Shown: positions 35,758 to 58,843 of the stretch, in pieces
How the letters are laid out: each line of letters begins with the position of its first letter
Position numbering within the stretch: the first letter of the stretch is position 1
Assembly (NCBI GenBank): GCA_963774265.1
Contig: CAVZDU010000001.1
Span: 928,001-992,000 of the forward strand
Direction of reading: 5' to 3'
Length of the DNA: 64,000 nt
Origin: an uncultured Chloroflexia bacterium
GTDB taxonomy: Bacteria; Chloroflexota; Anaerolineae; CG2-30-64-16
Program-made: the position numbers and the translations under genes
The notes under the pieces: model-generated
The model's database searches: none
What the model was told of the DNA's origin: nothing
What the model saw: the letters and a program-made list of their open reading frames with translations, nothing else

Positions 35758-37152
35758 ATGTCTAGTCGAAACCGTGGCTCTCGGACCGGGAGCCTTTTGG
35801 CCCTCTTAATGGTTCTTACGATAGCCCTGTCGCTCGCCGGCTGTGCACAACCAGCCGCACCGACTGCTGCCCCCCAGGCAGCCGCACCGACTGCTGCCCC
35901 CCAGGCAGCCGCACCGACTGCTGCCCCCCAGGCAGCTGCACCGACTGCTGCCCCTCAGGCGGCCGCACCGAGCAAAGTCTTCAAATTGGGCGTGGACGGC
36001 CCCTTCAGCGGGCCGGGCGCGAAGACCGGCGAAGAGTTCAGGCGCTCGTTCCAGATGGCCATGGAGGCGATCAATTACACAATTGGTGATTACAAGATCG
36101 AGCCTGTCTGGATCGACGACCAGTCCGACCCGGCCAAGGGCGCCGCGGCCTACGAGCAGGCCGTCGTGCAGGATAAGATCCAGGCGGGGATTCTGCAACT
36201 GGAACAGCTCGGTGGCGGTTGCGCTCATGGAATTCACCGCCAAGTACAAGATCCCTCACTTCTTCGGTTTCGGCGCCACCGAGGTGGTCAATGAGACCTT
36301 TGCGTCTGATCCCGAGAAATACGGCTACTGGATGAATCAAGGGTTGGGCGTCGCCGAGCAAGCTAACGATATCTTACGTCGATGCGTTGGAAGATGCGAT
36401 TGCCAAGGGCACCTATCAAGCCGGAAGCCAAGACGGTCGCTCTCGCCGGCGAGGACACCGACTGGGGACGCAGCTTCCTGCGGAGCCATCAAGGGCCAGT
36501 TCGAAGCGAAGGGTTGGAAGATCGTCTGCTGAAGAGTACTTCCCGATCGATCAGAGCGAGTTCACGCCCCTGATGACCAAGCTGAAGGAGAGCGATCCGG
36601 CCGTGTTGGTGGTGTCCAGCGTTGTGACCCCGGTGTCGTCGGCTGCAATCAAGCAGGCGGAACAGGTGGGACTGAAGAGTCTGATCATTGCCGACGGCCT
36701 GGGGTGGGCTGGCAACTGGTACGAGCTGACGGGCAAGTCCTCCGAATTATGTGCTGGACCAGATCCCACAGCTGGCGACGGATAAGGCGAAGGCGTTCGC
36801 CAAGGCGTACGAGACCAAGTACGGCGACAAGCCGAGCCCGTCGGCAGCCGGGTTGGCGTATGATGGCACGAACTACTTTATCGCCATGGCCAACGAGGTC
36901 ATCAAGGTGAACAACGGTGAGTTGACCGGCGAGGCCATCTACAAATTCGTGAAGGAAAAAATCTGGACGGGCGAGTGGATCTATAAGGACGGGATCATCA
37001 TGCCGGCGTACAAGTATATGCCGGACACGATTCCGGATCCAGTGGTCGGCGCCGGCTATTACATGTTCCCGGTGCTGCAATACTTTGATGGCGAAAGCAA
37101 GATCGTGTTCCCCAACGACGTTGCTACGCAGCCTCTACAAGCCAAGCCGTAG
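35758..37152 (+). CDS. Liv-type ABC transporter substrate-binding lipoprotein (frameshifted)
   Basis: Lipobox LAGC, Ala/Pro linker, KLGVDGPFSG and EDTDWG motifs. Confidence 0.88.
35854..35970 (+). repeat. 27-bp coding tandem repeat, about 4.3 copies (AAPTAAPQA)
   Basis: GCCGCACCGACTGCTGCCCCCCAGGCA repeated. Confidence 0.92.
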
Positions 37153-37261
37153 CACCAGGCGCCCGGGACCCGGCCACGCAGGCAGGGTCCCGGGTTTGGT
37201 CTCCTCGGGGCAGGGCGGCCCTGTTCTACCGCTGCTTTCGGCACGTCTCAGGCGGTGACAG

Positions 37262-37995
37262 ATGATCCTTGAGGCCAGCAATGTCGTGAAGAATTTTGGC
37301 GGCTTGACTGCCGTCAATCGCGTGTCGCTCCAGGTGGACGAGGGAGAAATCATCGGGCTGATAGGGCCCAACGGTGCTGGTAAGACGACTTTCCTCAACT
37401 GTTTGGCCGGCACCTTCAGGCCCAGCTGCAGGCACGGTGCACTTCCGGGGGGAGAACACAACTGGAGCTTCGGCAGACGTCATGTGCCACCGGGGTATGT
37501 CGCGTACTTTCCAGATTCCGCTTCCCTTTCCTAAGATGACGGTTCTGGAGAACGTCATGGTGGGAGCGCAATTTGGTGGTGGGAGCCGCCATCATGCGGC
37601 GCCTGCCAGGCAGCGGGCGGAGGAAGCGCTGGCTTTCGTGCAGTTTTCCTTGCCGCTCGATACACCGGCTCAGCTGGTGCAACGCGGTGCAGCTCAAACG
37701 CCTCGACCTGGCCCGTGCCTGGGCATGCAGCCCGAAGCTGCTGTTGCTTGACGAGCTGGCATCTGGGCTGACGCCTACCGAGTTGGACGAGATGATCACG
37801 TTGATCAGAAGCATCCGCGATCGCGGCGTGGCCATCATCGCCGTCGAGCACATTATGCGGGTGATCATGGGCATCTGCGATCGCATCCTGGTGATTCAGT
37901 ACGGCACGCCGATCGCCGAAGGCCTGCCCAACGATGTTTTGCGCGATCCGAAAGTGATTGAGGCCTATCTTGGTGACGAGAAGGTCGCACACTAG
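37262..37995 (+). CDS. ABC transporter ATPase, LivG-like (frameshifted)
   Basis: [22 protein letters not shown] and VIEAYLG motifs. Confidence 0.9.
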
Positions 37996-38025
37996 CGCCG
38001 GCGCCACGGTACGAGGCGCTTACAC

Positions 38026-38756
38026 TTGTGCGCCCGGGAGGCACCCTTGCTCGAAATAAGAAACATCGACACCAGCTATGATTTCCTCCAGGTACTCTGG
38101 GATGTATCCTTGTCGGTCCAGAAGGGCGAGTTCGTGGCCTTGATCGGCCCGAACGGAGCGGGCAAGACCACGACGCTTGCGCACCATTGCTGGGTTGCTG
38201 CGACCCAGGGCGGGTCAAGTCATCTTTGACGGCAGATCCATCAGCGGTCTGACGGCCGCACGAGATCAGCCGCATGGGCCTGGCCTACGTTTCGGAGAGT
38301 CTCAACCTCTTCACTAACATGTCGGTGCACGAGAATCTGCTGCTGGGCGCATACTCCATACAGGACAAAGCAACAGCGCGAAGAGACGTTGCAGTTCGTA
38401 TTCGAATTGTTTCCCCGGTTGGAAGAACGCGCCAGACAGTTGGCCGGCACGATGAGCGGCGGCGAGCGCAAGATGCTGGCCATCGGCCGGGGCATCATGT
38501 CCAGCCCGCGGGCTATGCTGATCGACGAGCCGTCTCTCGGTCTGGCGCCTCACCTGGCTCACGAGGTCTTTCAGGGATTGCGTTACGCTTAACCAGCGTG
38601 GGGTCACGATTCTTCTGGTCGAGCAGAACGTGCACATGACTCTGGAAATCATCCAGCCGGGCCTACGTGATGGAGCATGGCCGCGTGGTCATGGAGGGCC
38701 CGAGCCGGGAGCTGAAACAGAACGAGCACGTCCGCAAGGCCTATCTCGGGATTTGA
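38026..38756 (+). CDS. ABC transporter ATPase, LivF-like (frameshifted)
   Basis: [22 protein letters not shown] and DEPSLGLAP motifs. Confidence 0.9.
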
Positions 38757-38767
38757 TGAGGAGAGCC

Positions 38768-39821
38768 ATGAGTACCAGCAAAGATCCTCCTGCCGCGAGT
38801 ACGGCAAGACTTCAACCCGTCGCCGCGCAGGAATATACCCGCCCTGGCGGTTGGCGTGCTGTCGTTGGTGATCGCGGTATTGATTGGGGTCAACGGCGGG
38901 CCGGCGCAGCTGTTCACCACCCTGGTCACAGGCGGCATGTGGGCACTGATGTCGGTTGGGCTGGCGCTTATCTTCGGTGTGATGAACATCCCGCATTTCG
39001 CCCACGGCGAATCGTTCATGATCGGGGCCTACGTCGCCTGGTTCGTGTTCACCCCCTTCAAATCGCACGCTGCAGCAGCACCCCAATGCATTTCCTGCGC
39101 GCGGTGGCGCCTTTCGTCGGCATGCTTGCGGCCGCCGTCGTCGGCGCAGTTATGGGTGTAGTGATCGAGCGTCTGATCTTTGCACCCTGCGTCACCGGAC
39201 TAAGGAAGGCTGGGTTATGAACGCCTTTCTGTTGACGGTGGGCCTGTCCTTCGTTCTGACCAACGGCACTACCTTGGCGCTTGGCCCCGACTATCGAGGC
39301 GTGCCGCAATACTGGGACGTGCCGTCACTGCAGTTCCTGGGCATGCGCGTCACCGTGGACCGGTTGGTGGCTTTCGCCGTTGCGTTGCTCGTGATCGGCG
39401 CCCTGTGGCTTTTTCTGCAGCGCACCAGTACCGGCCGGGCGATCCGTGCCGTCTCGCAGGATGAGACGGGCGCGCAGATGGTGGGCATCAATCTCGATGG
39501 CATCCAGACGCTGACCTTTTCCCTGGCCACCGCGACTGCCGCGCTGGCGGGCGCCTCCCTGCTTTTCATGTTCCCGGCCTATCCCCTCGTGGGCCTCAAC
39601 CCGCTCTACTTTTCCTGGTACGTGGTGATGCTCGTCGGACTTGGCAATGTCCCCGGCGCTATCATCGGCGGCTTTATCGTGGCTCTGTTGCAGACGGCAA
39701 CACAACAGTTTTTCGGCATCTCCTGGGAAACGTTATCCCGACAGCAATCATGGTCATCGTGCTGCTGGTGGCGCCTTCGGGCATCTTCGGCAGCGAGGTC
39801 AAGGGCGTTCAAGAACAGTGA
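38768..39821 (+). CDS. ABC permease, LivH-like (frameshifted)
   Basis: GLALIFGVMNIPHFAHG and GRAIRAVSQD motifs. Confidence 0.88.
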
Positions 39822-39837
39822 GGCGTGAGTGATAGCG

Positions 39838-40902
39838 ATGAAGAGTAACCTCGAGGACAAACAGCAACATGCCGCGGTGAGAGGTGGCCTGTGGCAGACC
39901 CTGGTGGGCGGCTGGATCGCATCGGCATTCACGCCGCTCGGATTGGCCCTGTTGGTGATCATCGCCATCTTGCCGAACGTGCCGCCCTTCAACCAGGAGC
40001 ATATGCTGCGCTGGCTGATCGCCGGCGCGTTCCTCGGACGCCCAGGCAGTGGCCTTCGATTTCACGGCCGGGTTCATCAATGTGGTTAATTTCGGCTTTG
40101 CCGCCATGGTCGGATTGGGAGCCTACACCTCAGCCCTCTTGGCCAACACCGCTCCGTACCTGGTGCTCAGGCCGGGGATATCGCCCTGGATCGGCATTTG
40201 GGTTGGCGCACTGGTGGCAGGCCTGCTGGGCTTGGTGCTCGGCATGCTTACTTTGCGTCTGCGTGGCATCTATGCAGCGGTGATGGCCTGGTTTGTGGGC
40301 ATTGCCCTGCTGGGTTTGGCCAACAATCTGACCAGGCTGACGCGCGGTTCGATGGGTTTGCATCCGCGGGCTCTGTTCACCACGACTGATAATCTGCCGT
40401 ACTTCTACGTCATCCTGGGCATGCTGCTGCTCATCTACGTCACCTTGCACCTGGTCACCAAGTCGTCGTACGGCCTGGCCTTCAAGGCCATCGGGCAGAA
40501 CATCGATGCCGCGCGGGCTTCAGGGATCGATCCGACGAAGTACCGGGTGTTCAACTTCGCGCTGTCGTGCTTCTTCGCGGGCCTGCTCGGTGGATTCTAT
40601 GCACACTACTACGGCTCGCTGACCCCTAAGAACGTGATGCACACCTCAAAGACAGTGGAAGTGCTCGCCAGTTGCCTATATCGGCGGTCGCGGCAGCCTG
40701 TGGGGCGGCATCGCGTTCGCGTTCCCCTTCATCTTCTTCATCGAGTACTTGCGCTCCAGTCTGACCGATCTTGCCCGGGCTGCACCTGGTGATTTACGGC
40801 ATCGTGATGATGCTGGTGATGATCTACTATCCCGCCGGGTTCGCCGGGGCCTACTACTGGCTGACCTCGAAACTGCGCCGGGGCAGCCGCCCAAAGAGGT
40901 AG
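39838..40902 (+). CDS. ABC permease, LivM-like (frameshifted)
   Basis: LRLRGIY, GLAFKAIGQN and GGRGSLWG motifs. Confidence 0.88.
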
Positions 40903-40922
40903 ATCAAAGGGGAAGATAAGGC

Positions 40923-41210
40923 GTGACCCGATCTGATCATTATCCCGCCGAGTTTGAGCAATTCACCATCCAGGTGGACGGTGAATCGCTGCCGGCCCGG
41001 CGCGGGCAGACGGTGGCGGCGGTATTGACCGGCGCAGGCCGGCTGGTCCTGCGCCGGACCGCCAGCGGCGCGCCGCGCGGTGTCTTCTGTGGCATGGGCG
41101 TCTGCTATGACTGTGTCGTGACGATCGATGGCGTTCCCGATCAGCGCGCGTGCATGACGCCCGCGCGCCCGGGCATGTGGGTGCAAACGCACTCCCGCCA
41201 GGAACCTTGA
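40923..41210 (+). CDS. [2Fe-2S] small subunit (HcnA/sarcosine oxidase alpha N-term-like)
   Basis: RGVFCGMGVCYDC...RAC motif. Confidence 0.9.
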   Translation: MTRSDHYPAEFEQFTIQVDGESLPARRGQTVAAVLTGAGRLVLRRTASGAPRGVFCGMGVCYDCVVTIDGVPDQRACMTPARPGMWVQTHSRQEP

Positions 41211-42751
41211 TGGGGCAACTCCTGGTGTCGACGCATTCTGATCCCTGTATCCTCGTCATCGGCGCCGGTCCTGCAGGTCTGGCAGCGGCCGTCACGGCTG
41301 CTGAACTCGGCCTACGCGTGGTGTTGATGGATGAGGCGGCCACTCCAGGTGGGCAGTATCTCTCTGGGGGTGACTCAGCCAGCGACGATCGTGCAGCCGC
41401 AGGGCACGGCTCTCAGGCAAAAGCGGAACGCGACGGAGCAGCGTTGATGGCCCGTGCAAACGTACTCAGCCGCGCGGCGGGATCCCGCCTCGGGCTTCGG
41501 TGTGGCGCGACCGTGTGGAGCCTCACTCCCAGTCCCGACGGGACGGCTCCCGGCCTCATCGCCATGGTCCATCACGGTGGCAGATACGGCACCCGGGCCG
41601 GCTCCGAGCGCGTCGAGGCGGATGCCGTCATCCTGGCCACGGGCGCGCGGGAGACGGTCGCTCCGTTTCCCGGCTGGACCTTGCCGGGGGTGATGACGGT
41701 GGGGGCGGCCCAATTGCTGGTCAAGCGCCACGGGGTCAGTCCCGCTGGGCCGGGGCAGCGAGTCTTGCTCGCGGGATCAGGACTGCTCTTGCTGCCGGCG
41801 GCGGCACGGTTAGTCGAGGCCGGCGCATACGTCGTGGGAGTTCTGGAAGCCGCGCACCTGGATGCATCCACCATTCGCCAAGCCGCCTTGTCCGGGATTT
41901 CGGAATGGGCGCCGGCATTGTGGGATCGGTCAGGCGAAGGCTGGCACTATCTGTCCGCTTTGCGCAAGGGCCGCGTCCCATATCGGTTTGGCCGGGCGGT
42001 GGTCCGGGCAAGGGGAGTCGAGCGTGTGGAAGCGGTGGATATCGCACGACTGGACCGCACAGGCGCACCGCTCCCGGGGCTTACGGAGACGTGGCCGGTC
42101 GATCTCTTGTGTGTCGGCTACGGTTTAGTCCCGAATATCGAATTGGCCCAACTGGCAGGGGCCAGGGTCCGCTACAGTGCGGAATTGGGTGGATGGGCCG
42201 TTGAAGTGGATGAACTATCGGGGGTGCAGACGACCGTGCCGGGTCTGTTTGTGGCAGGAGAGACCTCCGGCATCAGAGGTGCGGGCAGCGCATTGTTGAG
42301 CGGGCGGCTTGCGACAATGAGCGCCGCGGCATGGCTGGGTCGGCTGCCCCAGGCCGCACTGCAGGCCGAATTGGCCGGCGCCGCGCGGCGCCGGCGGCAG
42401 GATGCGCGTTTCGGCGCCCTGATCAATCTGCTGTTTGGCGCTCCGGACGGGCTAACGCGGGCCATCCCCGACGACACACCCATGTGCCGGTGCGAGGAAG
42501 TGACCGCCGGACAGGTGCGGGCAGCCATTGCAGCGGGTTCACGGTCGTTGGATGCGTTGAAACCGGCCTTGCGTGTCGGGCAGGGCCTTTGTCAGGGGCG
42601 CACATGTGGTCCGGCGTTGGCGGGCATGATCGCCATCGAAACAGGTAGATCTGTTGAGGCATCCGGACTGTTTCAAACGCGCCCGCCGGTCAAGCCTGTG
42701 CCGCTCGCCGCAATCGCCGGACCGGCTGCAGTGGGGGATGGTTCACTGTGA
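41210..42751 (+). CDS. FAD/NAD(P) oxidoreductase with BFD-like [2Fe-2S] domain (HcnB/OoxA-like)
   Basis: GAGPAG, ATGARE..FPGWTLPGV, CRCEEV, GLCQGRTC and RPP motifs. Confidence 0.9.
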   Translation: MGQLLVSTHSDPCILVIGAGPAGLAAAVTAAELGLRVVLMDEAATPGGQYLSGGDSASDDRAAAGHGSQAKAERDGAALMARANVLSRAAGSRLGLRCGATVWSLTPSPDGTAPGLIAMVHHGGRYGTRAGSERVEADAVILATGARETVAPFPGWTLPGVMTVGAAQLLVKRHGVSPAGPGQRVLLAGSGLLLLPAAARLVEAGAYVVGVLEAAHLDASTIRQAALSGISEWAPALWDRSGEGWHYLSALRKGRVPYRFGRAVVRARGVERVEAVDIARLDRTGAPLPGLTETWPVDLLCVGYGLVPNIELAQLAGARVRYSAELGGWAVEVDELSGVQTTVPGLFVAGETSGIRGAGSALLSGRLATMSAAAWLGRLPQAALQAELAGAARRRRQDARFGALINLLFGAPDGLTRAIPDDTPMCRCEEVTAGQVRAAIAAGSRSLDALKPALRVGQGLCQGRTCGPALAGMIAIETGRSVEASGLFQTRPPVKPVPLAAIAGPAAVGDGSL

Positions 42752-43959
42752 AGGCCCACGCGGATGTGATCGTTGTCGGTGGCGGCATTGTGGGCGCAGC
42801 GTGCGCTTACTACCTGGCGCAGTCCGGCATCGGCGTCCAGGTCCTGGAGCGCCAGTTCTTTGCCAGCGGCACATCTCGTGCATGTGACGGATTGATCCTT
42901 TCCTGGGATAAGCAGTCGCCGGCCGAGCTTGAACTGGGACAGGCCAGCGCCGCACTATGGGCCAGTTTGGCTGATGAGCTGCCTTTCGATTTCGAGTACC
43001 GGCGCCAGGGCTCGATTGTCCTTGCCGAAACAGGGGATACCCTGGCTGACCTGCACAAGAAAGCGGTCGACCTGGGGGAGGCCGGCATCCGCGCAGAGAT
43101 GTTGGATGCAGCGGGGCTACTGGTGCTCGAACCCAACCTGGCGCCGGATCTGGCCGGGGGCGTCTTCTACCCTGACGATGCACAGCTCGACGCCCGCCTG
43201 GCGACGCTGGCATTGCTTGAAGAGGCTGCCCGCCTCGGTGCTGACCTGAGGCAAGGTGTCGAAGTACGCGGCTTACAGCGGCAGCACGATGGCCGCGTGA
43301 CGGGCGTCCTCACCGCTGATGGCGCGATCGAAGCGGATGACGTGGTGATCGCCGGTGGGGTGTGGAGCAGCGAGATGCTGCGCGAAGCCGGGCTGGACCT
43401 GCCGATCCGACCGCGCAAGGGGCACATCGTCGTCGCGTCGGTGCGCCACATGCCCGACCTGATTGCCCATCCGCTGGCGGAGGGAAGCTATGCGGCCTCC
43501 GTGAAATCGTCAGCCGAAGATGTGCAGGTGGCGCTCATCGCAGAAAAGACGGCCAGCGACACGCTGCTTCTGGGCAGCAGTCGTGAGTTCTGCGGCTTCG
43601 ATCGGTCGGTTCGAGTGGAGGTCATCCAGGCGATTGCGGCGCGCGCGATCCGATTCCTGCCTGCACTGGCTACGGCAAGTGCAATGCGGAGTTATGCAGG
43701 CCTCCGGCCGTGGAGCCCGGATCATCTCCCATTGATCGGACCGGTGGACACCCATCCGGGGTTGTTTTTGGCTGCAGGGCATGAAGGAGCCGGCATCGGC
43801 CTCGCGCCGATCACGGGCCGCATGATCGCTGACTGGATCAGGTGCTACCCTGACGGGCCTACCGTCGACGCAGAACCGCGGCGCGCTGGCGTCGCACCAG
43901 ATCCCCACGGGGGACTTCCCATGGGGTGGACCGCAACTCGGCCGGGACGTTTTCTCTAG
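42748..43959 (+). CDS. DAO-family FAD-dependent amino acid dehydrogenase subunit (HcnC/OoxB-like)
   Basis: GGGIVG, GLRPWSPDHLPLIG and GHEGAGI motifs. Confidence 0.9.
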   Translation: MKAHADVIVVGGGIVGAACAYYLAQSGIGVQVLERQFFASGTSRACDGLILSWDKQSPAELELGQASAALWASLADELPFDFEYRRQGSIVLAETGDTLADLHKKAVDLGEAGIRAEMLDAAGLLVLEPNLAPDLAGGVFYPDDAQLDARLATLALLEEAARLGADLRQGVEVRGLQRQHDGRVTGVLTADGAIEADDVVIAGGVWSSEMLREAGLDLPIRPRKGHIVVASVRHMPDLIAHPLAEGSYAASVKSSAEDVQVALIAEKTASDTLLLGSSREFCGFDRSVRVEVIQAIAARAIRFLPALATASAMRSYAGLRPWSPDHLPLIGPVDTHPGLFLAAGHEGAGIGLAPITGRMIADWIRCYPDGPTVDAEPRRAGVAPDPHGGLPMGWTATRPGRFL

Positions 43960-44006
43960 GTGTCTGGAAACGATCCGGTCCAAATAACTGATGTGAGGTG
44001 GAGAAT

Positions 44007-44876: not shown

Positions 44877-44917
44877 CAGTTACGCAGGCGATCGCCTGCA
44901 CCCAGGGTGAGGCGCAT

Positions 44918-46232: not shown

Positions 46233-46278
46233 ACTTCAGCGCATCCCGCGAGGGGATGGTTCCCAAAGGAGAACCTAC

Positions 46279-48406: not shown

Positions 48407-48409
48407 GCC

Positions 48410-49141
48410 ATGGGGCACGTTGAGCGCAACGCAGTGAAACCGCCCGTCGTCATCCTGACGTGCCGAGTGCTGATGAGCGCGTTGGAGCGCTTGGTGCCAC
48501 CCGATCTGGCCTCCGAGGTTCGGTTCCTGGACTACGGCCTGCATCGCGTGCCGGTTAAGCTCACTGCGGCGGTGCAGGAAAGCCTGGAGTCGATCGAGCA
48601 AGCCAGCCTGGTCGTGCTCGGTTACGGCCTGTGCGGGAATGGGTTGCGCGGGATTCAGTCAGGACAGCACACCTTGCTGATCCCACGCACTGATGACTGC
48701 ATCGCCATCTTGCTGGGTTCGTACAAGGCATACATGCAGCAGTTCCAGGCAGTGCCAGGCACTTACTACCTGACCAAGGGATGGCTCGAATCGGGCAGCG
48801 ATCCGCTGAGGGAATACGAGGAGTATTCGGCTAAGTGGGGCGAAGAAACCGCCATGTGGCTGATGGATCAGCAATACCAGAACTACAAGCGCCTGGTGCT
48901 GGTGGCCCCCAATGCCGAAGAGATGACCCAATATCGCCCGCAGGCGCTCGAAGTCGCCAACTTCTGCAAGCGCTGGGGAATGGTCTACGAGGAGATGTTC
49001 GGGTCCGACGACTATGTGCGCCGGCTGATCGAAACGGCTATTCGAGTGAGGGATTCTGGAACGGATACCGGCCCTATCGGCCCCGACTTTCTTGTGATTC
49101 GGCCCGGCGGGGAGATCGAACAGGCGATGTTCATGCGCTAA
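48410..49141 (+). CDS. DUF1638-like protein
   Basis: C..., GLH..P, GYGLCGNG, DDCIAILLG and YYLTKGW motifs; typical neighbour of corrinoid methyltransferases. Confidence 0.8.
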   Translation: MGHVERNAVKPPVVILTCRVLMSALERLVPPDLASEVRFLDYGLHRVPVKLTAAVQESLESIEQASLVVLGYGLCGNGLRGIQSGQHTLLIPRTDDCIAILLGSYKAYMQQFQAVPGTYYLTKGWLESGSDPLREYEEYSAKWGEETAMWLMDQQYQNYKRLVLVAPNAEEMTQYRPQALEVANFCKRWGMVYEEMFGSDDYVRRLIETAIRVRDSGTDTGPIGPDFLVIRPGGEIEQAMFMR

Positions 49142-49196: not shown

Positions 49197-50711
49197 ATGC
49201 AGAGAATAAGAATAACTACACGGTCAACGCCACGCCCACGATTCAGGTGCTGACCGAGCAGCAGATCGAAGCGATCTACTACGCCGCGCTCGGCGTCCTC
49301 TCAGAGACCGGCGTGCACGTTTACGACAAGGAAGGTTGGGATCTGGCCTACCAGGGCGGCGCCGTCGTCGAAGACGTGCAGGCCGACAACGCGCTGGTCA
49401 AGATGCCTTCCTGGATGGTGGACAAGGCCCGCGCCACGCTGCCGCAACGCATCCGCGTCATCGGCCCCGCTGGCGCCGACGGCGTGCGCAAGTACAAGAT
49501 GGATCTGTACAAGAACACGATGTACTTCGGCACCGGCTCGGATACGCCGTTCACCCTCGATCCTTACACCCAGGCGCCGCCGCGCGGTGTACAAGGATGT
49601 GAAGAACCTGGCCAAGCTGGCGGAGGCGCTGCCGAACGTCGACTTCTTCATGTCGCTCGGCATCACGCAGGACACGGCCGTCGGCACGTACGACCGCTGG
49701 CAGTACCTGGCAATGCTCGAAGCCACGACCAAGCCGATCAACATCACCGCGGTGGACATCGAGGGCCTCAAGGATCAGCTCGAGATGGCCTACATCCGGC
49801 TGGGCGGCAAGGAAGAGTGGAAGAAGGCGCCCTGTTTCTCGCTTTACAACGAGCCGGTGTCGCCGCTGAGCCACTCCGAGGAAGTGATCCAGAAGCTGCT
49901 CTTCTGCGCGGACCACGATATCCCGATCGTCTACACGCCGTGCCCGTTGGCGGGCGCGACTTCGCCCGCCACGTTGGCCGGCACGATGGTGCAGGCGCTC
50001 ACCGAGAGCCTCTTCGGCATCGTCCTCAGCCAGTTGCGCAAGCCGGGCACGGAGGTCATCATCGGCGGCCTGATGTCTGCCATGGACATGCAGACGGCGG
50101 TCTACCCGTACGGCTCGCCCGAAATGGCGCTGCTGAGCGCGGGCTACACCGAGATCACCAAGTGGCTGCGGGTGCCCGAGTACGAAACCGCCGGCTGCTC
50201 CGACGCCAAATGCTTCGACGAGCAGGCGTGCATGGAGGCCGCGATCAACATCAGCACCGCGGCCCTGGTCGGCGGCAACATGATCCACGACATCGGCTAC
50301 ATCGAGCAGGGCCTGTGCAGCAGCCCGCACATGTTGGTCGCGTCGGATGAGATCATCAGCCGCGCCAAGCGCATCCTGCGCGGCATCCCGGTCGATGCGG
50401 ACACGCAGGCGCTCGACGTCCTGGATGAGATCGGTCCGGGCGGCCACTTCCTGGGGCACGATCACACCTTCAGCCGCTTCAAGACGGAGAACTGGCGATC
50501 CGCGCTGGCTGACCGGCAGGTCTACGCTGACTGGGAAACTTCCGGCAGCAAGAACTACCAGCAGCGTGTGCACGAGCGGATGATCGAGATTCTCGAAGCC
50601 GAGACCGAACCGCTGCTCGATCCGAAGATGTACCAGGAACTGCACCGCATCTGCGAGCTGGCGGACGCGCGGCACAAGGACGAAGAGCTCGACGTCCAGA
50701 TGTTTGTGTAA
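49197..50711 (+). CDS. MttB-superfamily methyltransferase 2, no pyrrolysine (frameshift near 49580)
   Basis: FGTGS, ALPNVDF, PVSPL, SPATLAG, YGSPE, AGCSDAK and GPGGHFL motifs. Confidence 0.9.
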
Positions 50712-50716
50712 CTTTC

Positions 50717-50758
50717 GGTGCCCGGCACTGACGCCAGGTCTAAGTGCCGGGCACCTAA
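50717..50758. repeat. Intergenic inverted repeat GGTGCCCGGCACT...AGTGCCGGGCACC (copy 1)
   Basis: Same arms recur at 58075-58122. Confidence 0.8.
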
Positions 50759-50781
50759 CGTCCCCAAAGGTCAGGTGACCC

Positions 50782-52807
50782 TTGACTACAGCTAGCGATA
50801 GTCTTGTTCTTGGCATCGACACCGGCGGCACCTATACCGACGCAGTCCTGCTGGAATACCATTCGCGGCGGGTGCTGGCCACACACAAGAGCCTGACCAC
50901 CAAGCGCGACTTTTCGATCGGGATCGAGCAGGTCATCGACGGCATCCACATCGATGATCCCTCGTCCGATCAAGATGGTCTCTATCTCCACAACCCTGGC
51001 GACAAACGCAATCGCCGAGGGCAAAGGGAAACGGGTCGCGCTTGCTTCTCATCGGCTACGATCCGGAACTGATCGCGAATTTTCAGCATGGAGCGGCCGG
51101 TTTGCCACGCCGCATTTCTTCTATTTTCGCGGGGGCCATGACCTCTACGGCCGCGAGAAGGCCGAGTTGGACTTGACCGGCATCCTGGCCCAGGTGAACA
51201 AGATCAAGGACCGTGTCGACGCGATCGCGGTCTCCAGCTATTTCAGCCCGCTCAATCCCGAGCACGAAAACCGCGTCTACAACGCCATCTCCAGCATTTG
51301 TGACCTGCCGATCGTCCTGGGCCATCAGCTTTCGACCAGGCTTGGTTCGGTCGAACGCGCCACGACCGCTGCGCTGAATGCATCGCTGCTGGCGGTCTTG
51401 CAGGACTTCATCATCGCCGTGCGCCGGGCGATGGAGCGACGGCATATCGACGCGCCGCTGATGGTCGTGCGCGGGGACGGCACGCTGATGAGCGACGAGT
51501 TTGCTGCTCGCACGCCGGTCGAGACGATTCACTCGGGCCCGGCTGCCAGCGCCATCGGCGGCCGGTTCCTGACTAACCTGGATGAAGCGTTGGTCGTCGA
51601 TGTGGGCGGCACGACAACGGACCTGGCCCTGATCGAGGGCGGACAGGTGCGCGTCAGCACCGAGGGCGCCACTGTCGGCGAGTACAAGACGTCAGTGCAG
51701 GCGGCCCACCTTCTTTCGATCGCCCTGGGCGGCGACAGCCACATTCGTACGGCGCGCGATGGCCAGATTACCGTCGGCCCGGAGCGTGTGCTGCCGCTGG
51801 CGCACCTGGCCCACCTGCACCCGGACGTGGCCAGGCGGCTCAGGGCGCTGTCACGGCGGCAGTGGTCCCAGGCAACGCCCGACTGGCTGGAATACTGGTG
51901 CCTGTTGCGCGAGCCGCCGCCAGGCCTGCTCGAGAGCAGCCAGGAAGAGGCGCTGGTCGCCTTGCTGCGCGACGGTCCCCAGCCCGTGCCGGAAATTCTC
52001 AAGCACTTGAACGCACTCCACGTGGGTCAAATCCATGTGGCTGAGTTGATGCGCCAGGAGATCATCGGCAAGGCTGGCCTGACGCCCACCGATCTGATGC
52101 ATGTGGAGGGCAGCTACGCGCTATGGGATGTCGAATCCGCGAACCTGGCGCTGCAGGTGTTCAGCCATCATGTGCACGCCGCTGACCCTGCGCAGCGAGA
52201 GCCCGCACAAGTCCGCCGTCGCATCTGGGAGCGTATCACGGAGATGGCGGTGCATGCGATCGTTGCTTTCCTGACGGGAAAGCAGCTTCCGCCACCCGGA
52301 GCCGTCGATCCTGAGCGCGAAGAGGGCATCGGGCCCTGGTTCCTGCATAACAGCTTGTATCGCGTTCACCCCCACCTCGCCACCGAGTTTCATCTCAATA
52401 TCCCGATCATCGGCATCGGCGCGGCGGCCAGGCTGTTCCTGAAGCCGGTTGCCGAGGCGTTCCACACTGAGCTTGTGCTGCCAACGCACCATGAGGTGGC
52501 CAATGCGGTGGGCGCGATCGCCGGCAGCGTGATGGTCAGCGAGGAGGTGCTGGTCTATCCGCGGTTCGACGGGGCGGGGCTCGAGGTGCTGGGCTATTAT
52601 GTGCAGACCGGCGATCAGCGCACCGAAATCGATGATGTCACTGAAGCGCTGGCGCAGGCCCGAGCGCTGGCCCATGAGCGGGCGCTCGGCGGCGCGCTCC
52701 GCTCCGGCGCGGACAATCCCCAGGTGATGGTCGAACAACTCACCGACGGGCTTGACACCTACCGCGTTCGCGCCAAGGCCGTGGGCAACCCCCGCCTGGC
52801 GCGGTGA
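50782..52807 (+). CDS. Hydantoinase A/oxoprolinase-family ATP-dependent protein (frameshifts near 5' end)
   Basis: GIDTGGTYTD, STTLATNA, SGPAAS, DVGGTTTD, TPTD and VANAVGA motifs. Confidence 0.88.
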
Positions 52808-52857
52808 CGATTGAAGATCCAAGATTGAAGGCTGAAGATCCTGCAGGGGAGGATGGC

Positions 52858-53511
52858 ATGGAATCAGGTGTGCGACCAGATACTCAAAGAGCTTACAACC
52901 TCATTTGCGATAAGATCATTACCTTAGAATTACCGCCCGGGCATCCGATCCACGAGCAACAGCTCGCCGAGACGCTGGGCATGGCATTGAGCCCCGTGCA
53001 GGAGGCGCTGAAACTATTGGCGGACGATCACCTGGTGCGCGTCACGGCGCGCCACGGCTTCTACGTGGCCGATGTGAATGTGCCGGACCTGGATCAACTC
53101 AGCGAGCTCCGCCTGACCCTGGAGTGCCTGGCTGCGAGCCTGGCTGCCCGGCGTGCCACGCCCGACGATATCGTTGTGTTGCAGGCCCTCAGAGAAGAGC
53201 AGACCACGGCAGACCCGGCTGAGACGCGGCGGTTGTTCGACATCGATCACAAGTTCCACCAGGCGATCGCGAGGATTGCGGGAAACAAATACCTCGCCCA
53301 GACACTGGATCACTTCTTCGGGCTTTCCTTGCGCCTGTGGTATCTCGTGATGCCGCACCTGGATTTTCTGCCAGGGTCGGTTGGTAAGCACCTGGACATC
53401 GTGGATGCGATCGCCCGGCATGAACCCGATGCGGCGGAGCAGATGATGCGCGAGCACGTGGCAGAGTTCTACGTGAACGTGCGGGCTTATCTGATGACCC
53501 GCGGCGACTGA
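52858..53511 (+). CDS. GntR/FCD transcriptional regulator 2
   Basis: AYNLI...LPPG...PVQEAL HTH and DHKFH...GN FCD motif. Confidence 0.9.
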   Translation: MESGVRPDTQRAYNLICDKIITLELPPGHPIHEQQLAETLGMALSPVQEALKLLADDHLVRVTARHGFYVADVNVPDLDQLSELRLTLECLAASLAARRATPDDIVVLQALREEQTTADPAETRRLFDIDHKFHQAIARIAGNKYLAQTLDHFFGLSLRLWYLVMPHLDFLPGSVGKHLDIVDAIARHEPDAAEQMMREHVAEFYVNVRAYLMTRGD

Positions 53512-53573
53512 CGATTGACGATTGAAGATTGAAGATTGAAGATGGCATCGGATACCAGTTGGGCGGACTTGGG

Positions 53574-55319
53574 ATGACTCCGGCTGATCTCAATGAGGAC
53601 GCGGCCGGCGAGGTTAGCGTTCACGTCAGCTACGGCGCCAGGTCTGAAACGGTTTCTGTGGCCAGGGGCAGCGTGCTCAGCGAAGCGATCATCGCGACCG
53701 GCCTGCCGTTCGAGCAGCCGTGCGCTGGACGGGGCACGTGCCTCAAGTGCAAGGTGATGGTTGCGGGGGTGAGCCCGGAGGGCCTCAGCCCGTTGGACGA
53801 CCACGAGCGTCGCGGGTTGACGGTTGCGGAGCGCGCCGCCCGATATCGGCTTGCCTGCCGGGCCCGGGTTGCCGGCGACACGGACGTCACCCTGGCGCCG
53901 ATCGTCGTCTACTCCAACAAGATTTTCCGGGCGTGCAACGACTACAAGCGGCCCGACGCGCCCCTGGGCCTGGCGATCGACCTCGGCAGCACGACCGTGG
54001 CAGCCTTTGTTGTCACGCTCGACCGCAAGCAGGTTTGCGCGGGCGGCGCAGGTCTGAACCAGCAGACCGCTTTTGGCGCGGACGTGATCTCGCGCCTGGC
54101 TGCGGCGCAGATTGGGCCGGAGGTGGCGGAGCGCGTGTCCGTCCTGGCCCTATCCTCCATCGTTCAGGCCGTCGATGCGCTTCATCTGAGCGCCAACGCG
54201 CGGAAACGCATCCGCAAAGCAGTCATCGTCGGCAACTGCGCCATGCATCACCTGCTTCTGCGTGCGTCGGTCGATACGCTCGCCGAGCTGCCCTTCCAAC
54301 CCTCCGAACGGGACACGCGGCGGTACCAGTCGGGCCCGGGCGAGGCCGAAGGGGCCGCCAACCCATTCGCCGACATCTTCCCCCCTGGCGTCGAGGTCTT
54401 GCTGCCCCCGTTGATCGGCGGGTTTGTCGGCTCCGACGCGTTGGCCTGCCTGCTGGTCTACGGGTTTGACCGCGCGCCTGGGCCGATGGCCGCCATCGAC
54501 CTGGGGACCAACGGTGAGGTGATGGTCACCGACGGGCGCCGCATCCTGGTCGCGTCGACCGCGGCCGGGCCGGCCTTTGAGGGCGTGAACATCTCCTGCG
54601 GCTCCCGCGCGGTGGATGGCGCCATCACCGGCGTCGATTTACCGGTAGCGACGTTGCCGGTAGAGACGTTGCATGCAACGTCTCTACACCTGCGCACTGT
54701 GGCAGATCAGCCGCCGGTGGGTCTGACGGGATCGGGCCTGCTGGAGTTGGTCTACAAGTTGCGCCAGGCGGGTGTCATCGAGCCGAGCGGCCGGCTGGTC
54801 TCCGAGCACGATCTCTTTGGCGACCGGCTGAGCATGTCGGCAGATCTTCGAGGTCCCGCCGACGCCGAAGATGCGGACGCGCCGGTTCCCGTGCGCCAGT
54901 TCCTGATCACGGAGACCGGCGCGACTGTAGAGACGTTGCATGCAACGTCTCTACACTTGACGCAGCACGACATCCGTGAGCTTCAGAAGGCAAAGGGCGC
55001 GATCCGCGCTGCCATCGACACGTTGATGGCGCAGCTGGGCCTGGCTCCTGGCGATCTGACCCGGGTCATCCTGACTGGCTCGTTTGGCAGCCAGCTCTCC
55101 ATCGATGCCGTCGTCGGCCTCGGCATGCTGCCGCCGGTCGCGCCAAACATCATCGAGATGTCGCCCAATGGCGCGGGGTTCGGTGCGGCCATGATGCTCG
55201 ATGCGGGTGAGTTCGCCCGCGCCGAACGAATTGCGGCGGCCGCCGAGCAGGTCGACCTGGATCTGGACCCGGAGTTCGACCGGCGGTTTGTGCGATCGCT
55301 CAAGTTAATTGCAGATTGA
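53574..55319 (+). CDS. ATP-dependent corrinoid reductive activator (RACo/RamA-like: 2Fe-2S + ASKHA)
   Basis: CAGRGTCLKC..RLAC, DLGSTT, FGADVISR, GFVGSD, DLGTNGE, AGPAFEG and DIRELQKAK motifs. Confidence 0.9.
   Translation: MTPADLNEDAAGEVSVHVSYGARSETVSVARGSVLSEAIIATGLPFEQPCAGRGTCLKCKVMVAGVSPEGLSPLDDHERRGLTVAERAARYRLACRARVAGDTDVTLAPIVVYSNKIFRACNDYKRPDAPLGLAIDLGSTTVAAFVVTLDRKQVCAGGAGLNQQTAFGADVISRLAAAQIGPEVAERVSVLALSSIVQAVDALHLSANARKRIRKAVIVGNCAMHHLLLRASVDTLAELPFQPSERDTRRYQSGPGEAEGAANPFADIFPPGVEVLLPPLIGGFVGSDALACLLVYGFDRAPGPMAAIDLGTNGEVMVTDGRRILVASTAAGPAFEGVNISCGSRAVDGAITGVDLPVATLPVETLHATSLHLRTVADQPPVGLTGSGLLELVYKLRQAGVIEPSGRLVSEHDLFGDRLSMSADLRGPADAEDADAPVPVRQFLITETGATVETLHATSLHLTQHDIRELQKAKGAIRAAIDTLMAQLGLAPGDLTRVILTGSFGSQLSIDAVVGLGMLPPVAPNIIEMSPNGAGFGAAMMLDAGEFARAERIAAAAEQVDLDLDPEFDRRFVRSLKLIAD
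54660..54687. repeat. Intragenic in-frame REP palindrome, copy 1
   Basis: GTAGAGACGTTGCATGCAACGTCTCTAC, translated as VETLHATSL. Confidence 0.9.
54927..54954. repeat. Intragenic in-frame REP palindrome, copy 2
   Basis: Identical 28-mer giving the same peptide. Confidence 0.9.
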
Positions 55320-55402
55320 AAATTGAAAATTGAAGATTGGCGACAGATCACCGATCTTCCATCTTCCATCTGTCATCTTCAATCTTCAGTCGGAGGTAGT
55401 CT

Positions 55403-56362
55403 TTGGCCGGGAACCGCGTGCTTCGTATCCTGCTGGTGGTGGTCGCCACGTTGTGCTGGTCGACCGCGGGCATTCTGATTTCGTGGAGTCTGCAGGGCAG
55501 CAACTTGACGCCGCTGGGGCTGGCGTTTTGGCGCGTGCTGACGGCCTGCATCTGCCTGGCGGCTATCCTCTTCTTCGTTCCCGGCGGGCGTGACCTGTTG
55601 CGGGTTCCTCGGCGGTCGCTCCCCTGGCTCGCTGGCCTGGGCATACTGGCTGTCGGGGTTTTCCAGGTTCTGTGGATTTTGGGTATCATCACCAACGGCG
55701 CATCGCTGGCGACGGTGATCCAGTGCAATGCGCCGATCATCGTGACGGTGATGGCGCGCATCCTTTGGCGCGAGCCGCTGACCTGGCGCAAATGGGCTGC
55801 GATCGGCCTGGCGTTTCTGGGCACGGTTCTGGTTGCGCAGTTGGGCGGCGCGGGAGGCAACCTGCAACTCACACCCGTAGGCTTGCTCATTTCGCTCGCC
55901 TCCGCGTTCACTTATGCAGGCATCACGCTGTTCACCAAGAAGTTGACGGCTGACGGCGTCAACCCGTGGACCATCCTGGTGTATTCGTTCGGGTTTGCGG
56001 CGCTTAGCCTGCTGCCTTTTCAGTTCAGCCAGCCTGCGATCCGGATCACCGCCTCGACTTCGGTGGCGGCCTTCGCCGGGCTGGTGCTCATCACGACCAT
56101 CGCGGGGTACGGCGCGTATACCTCGGCCTTGCGTCACCTGCAAGCCAGCGTCGCGTCTATCGTGGCGTTGACGGAGGTGCCGTTTGCGGCAGGATTTGCG
56201 TTTGTCTTTCTCGGTGAGCGGATGAATGGGCTGCAGATCCTGGGTGCGCTTGCCATCGTAGGCGGCGTCTTGTTGCTCGCCGCCGCGCGGGCGCCCAACG
56301 AAGCGCAGGTTCGCAGCGGGCCCTACGCGCCATTAGTCATCGCAAAGGAGGATCAGGAATGA
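55403..56362 (+). CDS. EamA/DMT family transporter
   Basis: About 10 TM helices, two EamA repeats, FLGERM motif. Confidence 0.9.
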   Translation: MAGNRVLRILLVVVATLCWSTAGILISWSLQGSNLTPLGLAFWRVLTACICLAAILFFVPGGRDLLRVPRRSLPWLAGLGILAVGVFQVLWILGIITNGASLATVIQCNAPIIVTVMARILWREPLTWRKWAAIGLAFLGTVLVAQLGGAGGNLQLTPVGLLISLASAFTYAGITLFTKKLTADGVNPWTILVYSFGFAALSLLPFQFSQPAIRITASTSVAAFAGLVLITTIAGYGAYTSALRHLQASVASIVALTEVPFAAGFAFVFLGERMNGLQILGALAIVGGVLLLAAARAPNEAQVRSGPYAPLVIAKEDQE

Positions 56363-57336
56363 AGTCACTGGATCGAGTACTCTATCTGTCACGAGCCGAC
56401 GTTGAGAAAACCAACGTTTCGATGAGCGAAGTTATCGATGCGCTTGCGGTGGCCTTCCGCGAGCATGGGCTGGGCCATACGGAGATGCCTCCCAAGCCAG
56501 GCATCCACACTCAGCCCGACGCCTTCATCCATGCGATGCCGGCCTACATCCCCGCCCTGCATTCTGCGGGCATCAAGTGGGTGGGCGGCTATCCCACCAA
56601 CCAGGCGAAGGGGTTGCCTTACATCTCCGGGCTGCTCATTCTCAACGATGATGAGACAGGCATCCCGCTCGCGGTCATGGATTGCTCGTGGATCACCGCC
56701 ATGCGCACGGGCGCGGCGAGCGCCTTATCCGCGCGCTACCTGGCGCGGCCCGAGTCGGAGACCGTCGGCATATTGGGCTGCGGCGTGCAGGGGCGCACCA
56801 ACCTCGAAGCGTTGAAGTGTCTCTTCCCGGTGAAGCGCGTCTTCGCCTACGATCGGGTCCCGGAGGTCAGCAAACGCTACGCACAGGAGATGGGCGAGCG
56901 GTTTGGCCTGGAGGTGACCGCGGTCAATAACCCGCGGGAGGCTGTGACCGGCTGCGATATGGTGGTGACCGCGGGCCCGATCCTCCATACGCCCCACGCC
57001 ACGATCAAGGCGGGGTGGTTGGACGCCGGCGCGTTCGCATCCCTGGTGGACTACGATTCCTTCTGGGATGGGGCTGCGTTGCAGCAAGTAGACAAATTCT
57101 GCACCGACGATGTGCCGCAGCTGGAGTATTATCGCAGCATCGGCTACTTCCAGTCGATCCCGCCCATTCACGCCAGCCTGGGCGAGTTGGTCACGGGCCG
57201 TAAACCGGGCCGCCAGTCGCCCGAGGAACGCACCATCGGCTGCAACCTCGGCCTGGCGCTGGATGACATGGCGACCGCGCCGATCGTGTTCCGCCGCGCG
57301 ATGGAAAAGGGCATGGGGACCTGGCTGCCGTTGTAA
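56359..57336 (+). CDS. Ornithine cyclodeaminase/mu-crystallin family enzyme
   Basis: HAMPA, GIKWV, ITAMRTGA, GCGVQG and GLALDD motifs. Confidence 0.92.
   Translation: MKSLDRVLYLSRADVEKTNVSMSEVIDALAVAFREHGLGHTEMPPKPGIHTQPDAFIHAMPAYIPALHSAGIKWVGGYPTNQAKGLPYISGLLILNDDETGIPLAVMDCSWITAMRTGAASALSARYLARPESETVGILGCGVQGRTNLEALKCLFPVKRVFAYDRVPEVSKRYAQEMGERFGLEVTAVNNPREAVTGCDMVVTAGPILHTPHATIKAGWLDAGAFASLVDYDSFWDGAALQQVDKFCTDDVPQLEYYRSIGYFQSIPPIHASLGELVTGRKPGRQSPEERTIGCNLGLALDDMATAPIVFRRAMEKGMGTWLPL

Positions 57337-58132: not shown

Positions 58133-58843
<711 letters not shown>

Follow-up and report, generated by a model that had tools for sequence, protein, structure and literature searches.

A corrinoid-dependent methyl-transfer cassette with paired Cys-type MttB proteins in an Anaerolineae genome and its possible part in glycine betaine demethylation

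Which methylated amine is the substrate of two MttB-family methyltransferases that lack pyrrolysine (Pyl) and are encoded together with the other parts of a corrinoid-dependent pathway? The question is raised by a gene cassette at 35758-57336 of a 64,000-nucleotide stretch (hereafter the window; contig CAVZDU010000001.1, positions 928,001 to 992,000) of a metagenome-assembled genome (MAG) from the Anaerolineae. Glycine betaine is among the most abundant osmolytes and is a main anoxic source of the methylamines that feed methanogens; to our knowledge, the characterised B12-dependent enzymes take only its first methyl group. Judged by its gene content, the cassette is a complete corrinoid-dependent methyl-transfer system, and we suggest, at a little short of an even chance, that it completes the demethylation of glycine betaine via dimethylglycine and sarcosine by means of the MttB pair.

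Between 35.7 and 57.4 kb, the + strand was translated from stop to stop throughout and scanned with Pfam, and all genes of the cassette proved to be co-oriented on that strand. The methyl-transfer part matches Pterin_bind, B12-binding_2/B12-binding (twice), MTTB (twice), and DUF1638. It starts with an intact gene for a methylcorrinoid:tetrahydrofolate methyltransferase (MT2; 43998-44876, Pterin_bind 93.7 bits), whose orthologue in the related locus L005 (81% identical) scores 298.5 bits on NF005719 against a cut-off of 259. Further along are corrinoid protein 1 (45593-46229), MttB1 (46174-47743, motifs LPLWQTGGCTDSK and LCHDVGY), corrinoid protein 2 (47764-48406), the DUF1638 protein (48410-49141, intact), and MttB2 (49208-50711, motifs PEYETAGCSDAK and MIHDIGYIEQG). 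The motif DLHDIG (DxHxxG type) is found in both corrinoid proteins and in both L005 copies, and the proteins score under the MtgC-specific NCBIfam cut-offs (228 vs 370). Downstream lie the gene for a HyuA-fold (hydantoinase A / acetone carboxylase beta-like) ATPase (Hydant_A_N/Hydantoinase_A, 50794-52807) and an intact gene for a RACo-type reductive activator of corrinoid proteins (53529-55319), which has the full domain set (Fer2, Raco_middle, and RACo_C_ter) and scores under the AcsV and RamA equivalog cut-offs. The MT2 score, the two DxHxxG corrinoid proteins, and RACo bear out the part of an initial annotation of this DNA that proposed a corrinoid-dependent, multi-step N-demethylation feeding methyl-tetrahydrofolate (methyl-THF); each gene family that it listed was found by Pfam, in the order and on the strand claimed. 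Its list lacked two intact GntR/FCD regulator genes, one at 44834-45565 (start likely near 44933) and one at 52873-53511, and it missed the further point that ten of the genes are not open frames, to which we return below.

The substrate question turns on MttB1 and MttB2. The frame pieces of the first match positions 18-246 and 248-492 of the profile of the MttB superfamily (PF06253), those of the second positions 13-130 and 131-489, and the intact L005 orthologues of both match from end to end. MttB1 scores 202 bits against MtgB of Desulfitobacterium hafniense (2QNE); MttB2 scores 182 bits against MtgB and has its best solved match in the Pyl-type MttB of Methanosarcina barkeri (7XCL, 212 bits). 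On TIGR02369, their scores are 366.5 and 369.1 against a cut-off of 525, so by this model neither is a Pyl-type trimethylamine methyltransferase. They are thus far from the solved members, and the initial annotation was right to call the enzymes uncharacterised.

The active site of MtgB consists of Y97, R312, H348, and F356, and the available text of the report states that the arginine is conserved in MtgB, MtcB, MtyB, MtpB, and MthB (PMC13080624). We mapped these positions through printed alignments onto 65 MttB1 and 78 MttB2 orthologues. In the Y97 column, MttB1 has proline (63 sequences) or leucine (2) and MttB2 has serine (78); in the R312 column, MttB1 has tryptophan (65) and MttB2 tyrosine (78); H348 is histidine throughout (65 and 78); and in the F356 column, MttB1 has alanine (45), glycine (19), or proline (1) and MttB2 glycine (78). 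At the Pyl position, where MtgB has leucine, there is no UAG codon, and a cysteine codon is found in 64 of the 65 MttB1 genes (the other has glycine) and in 78/78 MttB2 genes. The window's own copies retain these residues. Both proteins fail the MtgB signature, and both lack the R312-equivalent arginine that, according to the same text, the characterised non-Pyl members keep. Other invariants of the Cys type that differ from the MtgB type are G336-C337, K341, D368 (which adjoins the invariant histidine), Y308, and K236. In a quick IQ-TREE analysis of 72 sequences, the clade with the MtgB signature (support 100) stands apart from a Cys-type superclade (100), inside which MttB1 (100) and MttB2 (100) are sisters (90), accompanied by further Cys-type clades. 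On these residues and this tree, MttB1 and MttB2 are a distinct Cys-type enzyme class within the MttB family.

The MtgB/MtgC/MtgA system of D. hafniense (2QNE, 9YCE) is alike in having an MttB-family substrate:corrinoid methyltransferase of the same TIM-barrel family, a DxHxxG corrinoid protein, a pterin-binding MT2, and a RamA/RACo activase; unlike it, the cassette has two methyltransferases of the first kind and two corrinoid proteins, plus DUF1638 and the HyuA-like ATPase, and its MttBs replace Y97/R312/F356 by P/W/A and S/Y/G and the leucine of MtgB by cysteine. Pyl-MttB/MttC shares with MttB2 an aromatic residue at R312, glycine at F356, and a G-x-SD-x-K motif around the key residue, but that residue is encoded by UAG, and its methyl acceptor is coenzyme M and not, as predicted here, THF. 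MtpB/MtqC/MtqA of Eubacterium limosum likewise carries out corrinoid-dependent N-demethylation of a betaine, but only one methyl is removed and, as described in the available text of PMC13080624, MtpB keeps the arginine; we set it apart on this description. Two further candidates for kinship, the mec cassette for dichloromethane and CdmB for chloromethane, were ruled out, as they belong to the UroD/MtaA and MtrH families.

The cassette is not peculiar to this genome. Species-representative genomes were scanned with the C-terminal part of MttB2, and the best 80 of 161 relatives were kept; presence was counted by tblastn only over those loci with a flank long enough for the component. This synteny search, which the initial annotation had proposed, revealed a core order common to the 80 retained loci: methyl-THF methyltransferase, GntR, corrinoid protein, MttB1, corrinoid protein, DUF1638, MttB2, HyuA-like, GntR, RACo, and EamA. 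MttB1 is present in 61/63 testable loci, a corrinoid protein in 74/76, the HyuA-like gene in 61/64, DUF1638 in 51/76, the second GntR in 48/58, RACo in 33/47, EamA in 30/42, MT2 in 32/46, and the Liv permeases in 23/38. The gene arrangement is far beyond chance. The hosts belong to the Anaerolineae, Caldilineae, Ardenticatenales, and Desulfobacterales; the best loci come from MAGs of Anaerolineae and other Chloroflexota, and the copies in Desulfobacterales MAGs are 70-76% identical.

What ties the pair to glycine betaine is the company that it keeps. The 80 loci contain 46 further MttB paralogues, 43 of them full-length (≥440 aa), and 23 of these 43 carry the MtgB signature Y97/R312/H348/(F|Y)356 in the motifs PGYGAPF, LPSRSGGALTD, and VLHAGGILSSYLA. 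By tblastn, an MtgB-like gene is found in 21/38 loci with at least 9 kb of upstream sequence (25/80 overall), usually between the importer and MT2. The genome of the window, which has about 13 MttB-family genes, encodes its true MtgB orthologue on a separate contig (C7:426627-428108, equivalent to L084:9628-11109); this protein scores 469 bits against D. hafniense MtgB (9YCE), and its four signature residues are Y, R, H, and Y. Its gene comes after those for a LacI regulator and an ABC system of the sugar type and has an IS200-like transposase gene as a neighbour; neither a corrinoid protein nor an MT2 of its own accompanies it at that locus. In a sample of 251 genomes of the class, an MttB2 orthologue (≥70% identity) and an MtgB-like gene (≥55% identity) each occur in 17 genomes, 13 of which have both; four have MttB2 only and four MtgB only, and three of the latter four have a 52-54% MttB2-like gene. 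This co-occurrence is an association, not a statistical test, because related genomes are not independent. Since MtgB does not use dimethylglycine or sarcosine (available text of PMC13080624), a separate enzyme is needed for these two steps. DAO genes nearest to glycine/sarcosine oxidases also accompany the cassette, as part of a trimer in 8/80 loci and as a single DAO in 9/80, and 7/9 of the single genes are directly upstream of the MtgB-like gene. Our full-text literature searches found no paper characterising a corrinoid-dependent dimethylglycine or sarcosine methyltransferase.

A parallel comes from 'Ca. Formimonas warabiya' strain DCMF, in which glycine betaine is demethylated, with dimethylglycine and sarcosine as products, and in which growth on it strongly induces a nine-gene cluster (Ga0180325_114734-42; proteomics only) (PMC9768040). 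As laid out in the accessible part of that report, the cluster encodes a corrinoid protein (210 aa), a methyltransferase I (485 aa), a second corrinoid protein (210 aa) and methyltransferase I (488 aa), a hydantoinase-A-like protein (668 aa), a methyltransferase II (265 aa), MtgB (471 aa), and two BCCT transporters; synteny with Sporomusa ovata and 'Ca. Frackibacter' extends over its first half, and the authors proposed separate methyltransferase I/corrinoid protein pairs for glycine betaine and dimethylglycine. Compared by order and length alone, our cassette matches (213, ~490-519, 213, [DUF1638], ~505, and ~670 aa). The two differ in that DCMF has BCCT transporters rather than a Liv-type ABC importer, and the same part of the report mentions no DUF1638, GntR, RACo, or EamA.

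We suggest the following model. MttB1 and MttB2, by domain content and conservation paralogous substrate:corrinoid methyltransferases each preceded by its own corrinoid protein, would work after MtgB (encoded on contig C7 here and inside the cassette in many relatives) and remove the second and third methyl groups, converting dimethylglycine to sarcosine and sarcosine to glycine. The one pterin-binding methyltransferase would hand the methyl groups to THF. The invariant cysteine at the Pyl site, with the neighbouring His-Asp, may stand in for the chemistry of pyrrolysine or of a permanent quaternary charge. ATP-driven RACo, DUF1638, and the HyuA-fold ATPase would hold cobalt at Co(I), and the methyl-THF would enter the host Wood-Ljungdahl / C1 pathway. 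The Liv-type ABC importer, the EamA transporter, and the two GntR regulators round off the system. One sub-lineage has added an HcnABC-like dehydrogenase and an OCD enzyme, whose probable role is to oxidise the amino acid left after demethylation, or else an N-alkyl or imino acid. The initial annotation had recommended a check for Wood-Ljungdahl genes, and the genome does encode AcsB/CdhC, formate-THF ligase (FTHFS), and methylene-THF reductase (MTHFR), so that methyl-THF has somewhere to go. A monofunctional proline dehydrogenase and the P protein of glycine cleavage are encoded as well, which leaves both glycine and proline as possible end products.

Were this model correct, Anaerolineae and Desulfobacterales would, with MtgB, turn glycine betaine fully into glycine and three methyl-THF anaerobically; no methylamine would be released, so an important methanogenesis precursor would be diverted in soils, wetlands, and sediments. 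The model would further reveal how non-quaternary amines are dealt with when pyrrolysine is lacking. Paired Cys-type MttBs are widespread, as the 17 genomes of the class sample indicate, and the question can be put to a direct test now that there is a defined pair of candidate enzymes with named residues to mutate. As a tentative and somewhat doubtful extension, we propose MttB1 and MttB2 as the corrinoid-dependent methyltransferases still missing for dimethylglycine and sarcosine, a Pyl-free class for tertiary and secondary amines with an invariant cysteine (plus His-Asp), served by a hitherto unrecognised three-part reactivation machine of RACo, DUF1638, and the HyuA-fold ATPase.

The evidence for such a machine is as follows. 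A structural model of the HyuA-like L005 orthologue (predicted local distance difference test score 92.7) was matched by Foldseek over its whole length (E ~1e-24 to 9H03, 5SVC_B, 5M45_B, and 5L9W, 1e-18 to 6YRA_A; TM 0.5-0.62) to HyuA-type ATPase subunits, namely those of N-methylhydantoinase (9H03), acetone carboxylase (beta), acetophenone carboxylase, and caprolactamase (alpha). No Hydantoinase_B partner was found by Pfam in any cassette segment or in the HyuA-like protein itself (the rest of the genome was not searched). One 1278-aa protein (P0001) joins HyuA-like to RACo domains. Counted by cluster, DUF1638 is fused to RACo (5), hydantoinase-A-like (5), corrinoid protein (1), and rhodanese (10) partners; an N-terminal extension of ~270 aa is present in 16 of the best 150 HyuA-like representatives, and a language-model look-up gave, as a lead only, an Atlas cluster of DUF1638-hydantoinase fusions with 245 members (score 0.87). 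In 39 DUF1638 orthologues, including that of the window, four cysteines (C10, C67, C89, and C178 of L002) and two histidines are invariant, which suggests a metal or iron-sulfur site. According to the available text of PMC5764234, Phaeobacter needs both DUF1638 and a RamA-like protein to make methionine in the B12-dependent way. Because of the gene fusions and the Phaeobacter genetics, we infer that RACo, DUF1638, and the HyuA-like ATPase form one corrinoid-maintenance unit. The fusions with DUF1638 and RACo point to corrinoid reactivation and away from a ring substrate for the hydantoinase-like protein.

A precedent for part of this unit is the aerobic system of Ruegeria pomeroyi and Phaeobacter inhibens (MtgBCD with a RamA-like protein and DUF1638), where DUF1638 and a RamA/RACo-type protein likewise accompany a corrinoid protein and an MttB-family enzyme (PMC12478193, PMC5764234); as far as the accessible text of these reports goes, that system has a single MtgB-type methyltransferase, is shared with methionine synthesis, and has no HyuA-like ATPase or Cys-type pair. 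Alternatively, the HyuA-like ATPase might activate the substrate, by analogy with the choline kinase that does so for MthB (available text of PMC12155760). Its identification as the B12 reactivase MutL was rejected, as scores of 14.6-25.2 bits fall short of the Pfam cut-off of 27 and the fold search gives HyuA-type enzymes. The protein belongs to a very large group (at least 7999 sequence clusters at E ≤ 1e-40), and distant homologues (37-43% identity) lie in Chloroflexia and Granulosicoccaceae loci with no MttB or corrinoid neighbours. One 885-aa protein (P0208) combines a HyuA-like part (73% identical) with GntR/FCD domains; it may be a true fusion to the regulator encoded downstream, or else a gene call that read through. 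The labels 'hydantoinase' and 'trimethylamine methyltransferase' in such clusters are not to be taken literally.

Several observations weigh against dimethylglycine and sarcosine as the substrates. Neither MttB has a carboxylate-binding arginine, which would fit a substrate without an acidic group, and replacement of the two aromatic residues of MtgB by small ones (S/P and G/A) suggests a larger, not a smaller, pocket. MttB2 is closer to the Pyl-type trimethylamine enzyme than to MtgB. Some loci have four or five MttB paralogues, which exceeds the methyl count of glycine betaine, and by the query used, 4 of the 17 MttB2-bearing genomes have no MtgB-like gene. The likeness to DCMF is drawn from gene order and length, and DCMF itself has three methyltransferases I for the two demethylations given in the available text. 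The importer is of the Liv type and not of a betaine type (OpuAC/BCCT), its binding protein has no informative solved relative, and its genes may be in real decay, as discussed below.

In the rival that survives best, the substrates of the Cys-type pair are methylated amines that carry no acidic group (tri- and dimethylamine without Pyl, or choline-derived dimethyl- and monomethylethanolamine), and MtgB merely shares the corrinoid proteins, MT2, and activase. An aromatic residue at the carboxylate-binding position is a feature of the Pyl type (tyrosine in MttB2 and 7XCL alike), as is glycine at the F356 position, and Cys-type paralogues reach 437 bits on TIGR02369 compared with 330-339 for MtgB-like genes; yet every score is under the cut-off. 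The four genomes that have the pair but no MtgB-like gene are also in its favour. An aldehyde:ferredoxin oxidoreductase (AFOR_N/AFOR_C) and an iron alcohol dehydrogenase are encoded directly upstream of the cassette (+ strand, 32251-35365), and locus L043 has the oxidoreductase and a 62% identical alcohol dehydrogenase; this neighbourhood could hint at an amino-alcohol or aldehyde product, but apart from the window, no more than one or two loci show it. A Liv-type importer, from a family that handles amino acids, and a glycine/sarcosine oxidase-like DAO suit amino acids better, and the induction by glycine betaine of a cassette with the same order, as given in the accessible part of PMC9768040, points to N-methylglycines. 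On balance, we consider non-acidic amines an unlikely answer, though one to be kept in mind.

The next rival concerns not the substrate but whether the cassette works at all, because ten of its genes are broken in the assembly. Frame changes were scored against intact orthologues from L005, L007, L085, and L053. In the importer (Pfam Peripla_BP_6, two ABC_tran, two BPD_transp_2), the Liv-type substrate-binding protein gene (35758-37152) is in four frame pieces with three changes; tblastn with the intact 442-aa orthologue (L085:1489-2814), for which we found neither an informative solved relative (best 4EY3, 44 bits) nor an NCBIfam model, puts these in frames 1, 2, 3, and 1. ATPase 1 (ABC_tran and BCA_ABC_TP_C, 37259-37995) is in three pieces with two changes, ATPase 2 (38026-38756) has at least two changes, and permeases 1 (38775-39821) and 2 (39838-40893) have two and three. 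There is one change each in corrinoid protein 1 (near 45975), MttB1 (near 46975), corrinoid protein 2 (near 48019), MttB2 (near 49570), and the hydantoinase-like gene (near 50968), which brings the total to at least 17 over ten genes in 21.6 kb (0.79 per kb). The three dehydrogenase subunits, MT2, both GntR regulators, DUF1638, RACo, EamA, and OCD are unbroken.

We read the breaks as assembly noise because rpoB, rpoC, and acsB of the same genome (G000 C7:822-8551, C1:21503-21963) are split across frames in the same way, as are 8 of 27 sampled orthologues of genes from a genome of the same family (G190; reference frames ≥350 aa, ≥60% identity, ≥80% covered). The sampled genes have 19 frame changes in 48.5 kb (0.39 per kb), two of them holding six each. 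At this sampled rate, some 0.4 per kb of coding sequence, gene calls throughout this genome need care. The assembly consists of 10 contigs with a marker completeness of only 84%. Between the breaks, the stretches are 85-93% identical in protein sequence to the intact orthologues and retain their catalytic motifs, and the sole in-frame stop seen is in ATPase 2, amid disturbed frames. The frame breaks are thus most likely consensus errors of the assembly and not gene decay.

Contigs from public sequencing runs add little to this. Four runs cover the region with pieces that are mostly 88-95% alike to it, which makes them relatives and not this strain; the 20 public runs with matches share at most 0.11 of the sampled words, and no RNA run is among the matching public runs listed. 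The relatives' contigs differ by 1-2 nt at the inferred breaks 46974/5, 48019, 49574, and 50969/71, with a 1-nt difference at 46974/46975 in MttB1 and two extra nucleotides behind 49574 in MttB2; as they come from relatives only, they show that the relatives' frames are intact and do not separate error from mutation here. Around 13 frame-change sites, neither GATC/CCWGG (6/13 vs a background of 0.30, p = 0.17) nor homopolymers (11/13 vs 0.63, p = 0.08) are significantly enriched.

Decay of the whole cassette, or of the importer at least, into a pseudogene array that has stopped working in this genome, whatever its ancestral function, would account for a break density above that of the genome sample and above all for the importer, where at least 12 of the changes fall within 5.1 kb; real decay of the importer is possible, and contigs from relatives are unable to reveal the strain's true sequence. 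Set against this are the split rpoB, rpoC, and acsB, the six-change genes elsewhere in the genome, the preserved identity and motifs with only one stop, and the incomplete assembly. We regard decay as decidedly unlikely.

The last rival is that of the initial annotation, which had proposed a proline-betaine-like substrate and had coupled its demethylation to oxidation or stereo-inversion of the backbone by the dehydrogenase and the OCD enzyme. The dehydrogenase has a small 2Fe-2S subunit (40923-41210, Fer2_4, 90 bits), an HcnB/SoxA-N-like subunit (41150-42751, Pyr_redox_2/Fer2_BFD/SO_alpha_A3) without the folate domain of sarcosine oxidase alpha, and a DAO-family flavoprotein subunit (42748-43959, DAO 268 bits). 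Encoded together, these constitute the architecture of HcnABC, LhpBEF, and opine dehydrogenases. The closest solved relatives of the DAO subunit are the glycine oxidase 7CYX (145 bits) and the proline dehydrogenase beta subunit of Pyrococcus horikoshii (1Y56_B, 95 bits), and its score on the NCBIfam model ThiO is 182 bits, under the cut-off of 250.8. The OCD/mu-crystallin enzyme (56359-57336, OCD_Mu_crystall, PF02423, 226 bits) probably belongs to the subfamily of archaeal alanine dehydrogenase and pyrroline-2-carboxylate (Pyr2C) reductase, its solved relatives being 1OMO (archaeal alanine dehydrogenase, 196 bits) and 6T3E (TlLhpI, 184 bits); it falls under all NCBIfam equivalog cut-offs (best ala_DH_arch, 222 vs 409). 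TlLhpI reduces Pyr2C, also acts as a dehydrogenase on alanine and N-methylalanine, and has proline dehydrogenase genes in its cluster, according to the available text of PMC4141209. For the dehydrogenase and OCD enzyme of the window, oxidation of glycine or sarcosine is one possible role and the handling of an imino acid another.

Each dehydrogenase subunit is present in 6/38 loci with enough upstream flank and OCD in 6/42 with enough downstream flank; among the 27 loci with both flanks long, three have both, three the dehydrogenase alone, none OCD alone, and 21 neither. As they occur in only about one locus in seven, these genes are not part of the conserved system, and we see them as additions of the sub-lineage nearest the window (L002, L005, L008, and L027). 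The coupling to oxidation or stereo-inversion thereby loses its support, as the initial annotation itself had allowed in the event that these genes were not conserved beside the MttBs.

In its full form, this reading has the MttBs strip proline betaine of one methyl group to give N-methylproline and of the other to give proline (or treat an analogue based on hydroxyproline or pipecolate likewise), with the dehydrogenase and OCD enzyme inverting or oxidising the imino acid. It draws on the resemblance of the two accessory enzymes, as a domain set, to the Thermococcus litoralis cluster of Pyr2C reductase with heterooligomeric proline dehydrogenase genes (accessible text of PMC4141209) and on the match of OCD to 6T3E, but OCD scores slightly higher against alanine dehydrogenase, and the DAO subunit is nearest to glycine oxidases rather than to the proline dehydrogenase beta subunit. 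PutA adjoins the cassette in a Desulfobacterales locus (L070), but in this 1 of 80 loci only. The aerobic Hpb pathway of Paracoccus denitrificans likewise has two successive demethylations to the free imino acid, but employs a Rieske oxygenase and a flavoenzyme, with no corrinoids in the available text (PMC3950512). Genes of the YbaK/ProX type, for editing of tRNA-Pro, in 13/80 loci would also fit. With the arginine reported as conserved in MtpB missing from both MttBs, a glycine-betaine signature in their recurrent neighbour and genome partner, and an accessory pair confined to few loci, proline betaine is very improbable as the substrate.

The YbaK/ProX-like aminoacyl-tRNA(Pro) editing-domain genes (PF04073) lie beside the cassette in both Chloroflexota and Desulfobacterales (L006, L011, L016, L023, L028, L029, L047, L048, L059, L065, L069, L070, and L071); one idea is that they shield tRNA-Pro from a secondary-amine amino acid such as sarcosine. 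Extra Cys-type MttB clades (motifs S/V/L ... F ... GCSD[SA]K) are encoded downstream of the core in some loci (L047, L059, L060, L065, L030, L048, L070, L043, L049, L080, and L022). A search of a plasmid collection with MttB2 gave relatives of at most 31% identity (73 records) and no cultured plasmid-borne copy. The core is also present, at 75-82% protein identity to Anaerolineae copies, on a 6.3-kb contig (L014) from a record titled Candidatus Thorarchaeota; its sequences nest among the Anaerolineae copies in the tree, and the Asgard assignment is probably a binning error and not archaeal ownership.

The EamA-family transporter gene (55403-56362, Pfam) is intact and lies between RACo and OCD. 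Beyond the cassette, on the - strand at 57404-58008, are genes for a PemK/MazF-like toxin (118 aa, Pfam 89.5 bits) and, upstream of it, an 84-aa reading frame with no Pfam match, which together resemble a toxin-antitoxin pair of type II, set between the cassette and the ABC system that follows. The latter (58133-63313, - strand) is a second Liv-type importer, frame-broken, with an ATPase, permease/ATPase frames that run into each other, and a truncated Peripla_BP_6 protein; its ATPase and permease are 81-89% identical in L002, L005, L008, and L027, the loci bearing the dehydrogenase and OCD, and it may belong with these accessory genes. On the other side, a two-CBS-domain protein is encoded at 27596-28258 (- strand); such a gene recurs near the cassette in 17/80 loci, and this copy in the window (G000 C1:955602-956240) is 52% identical.

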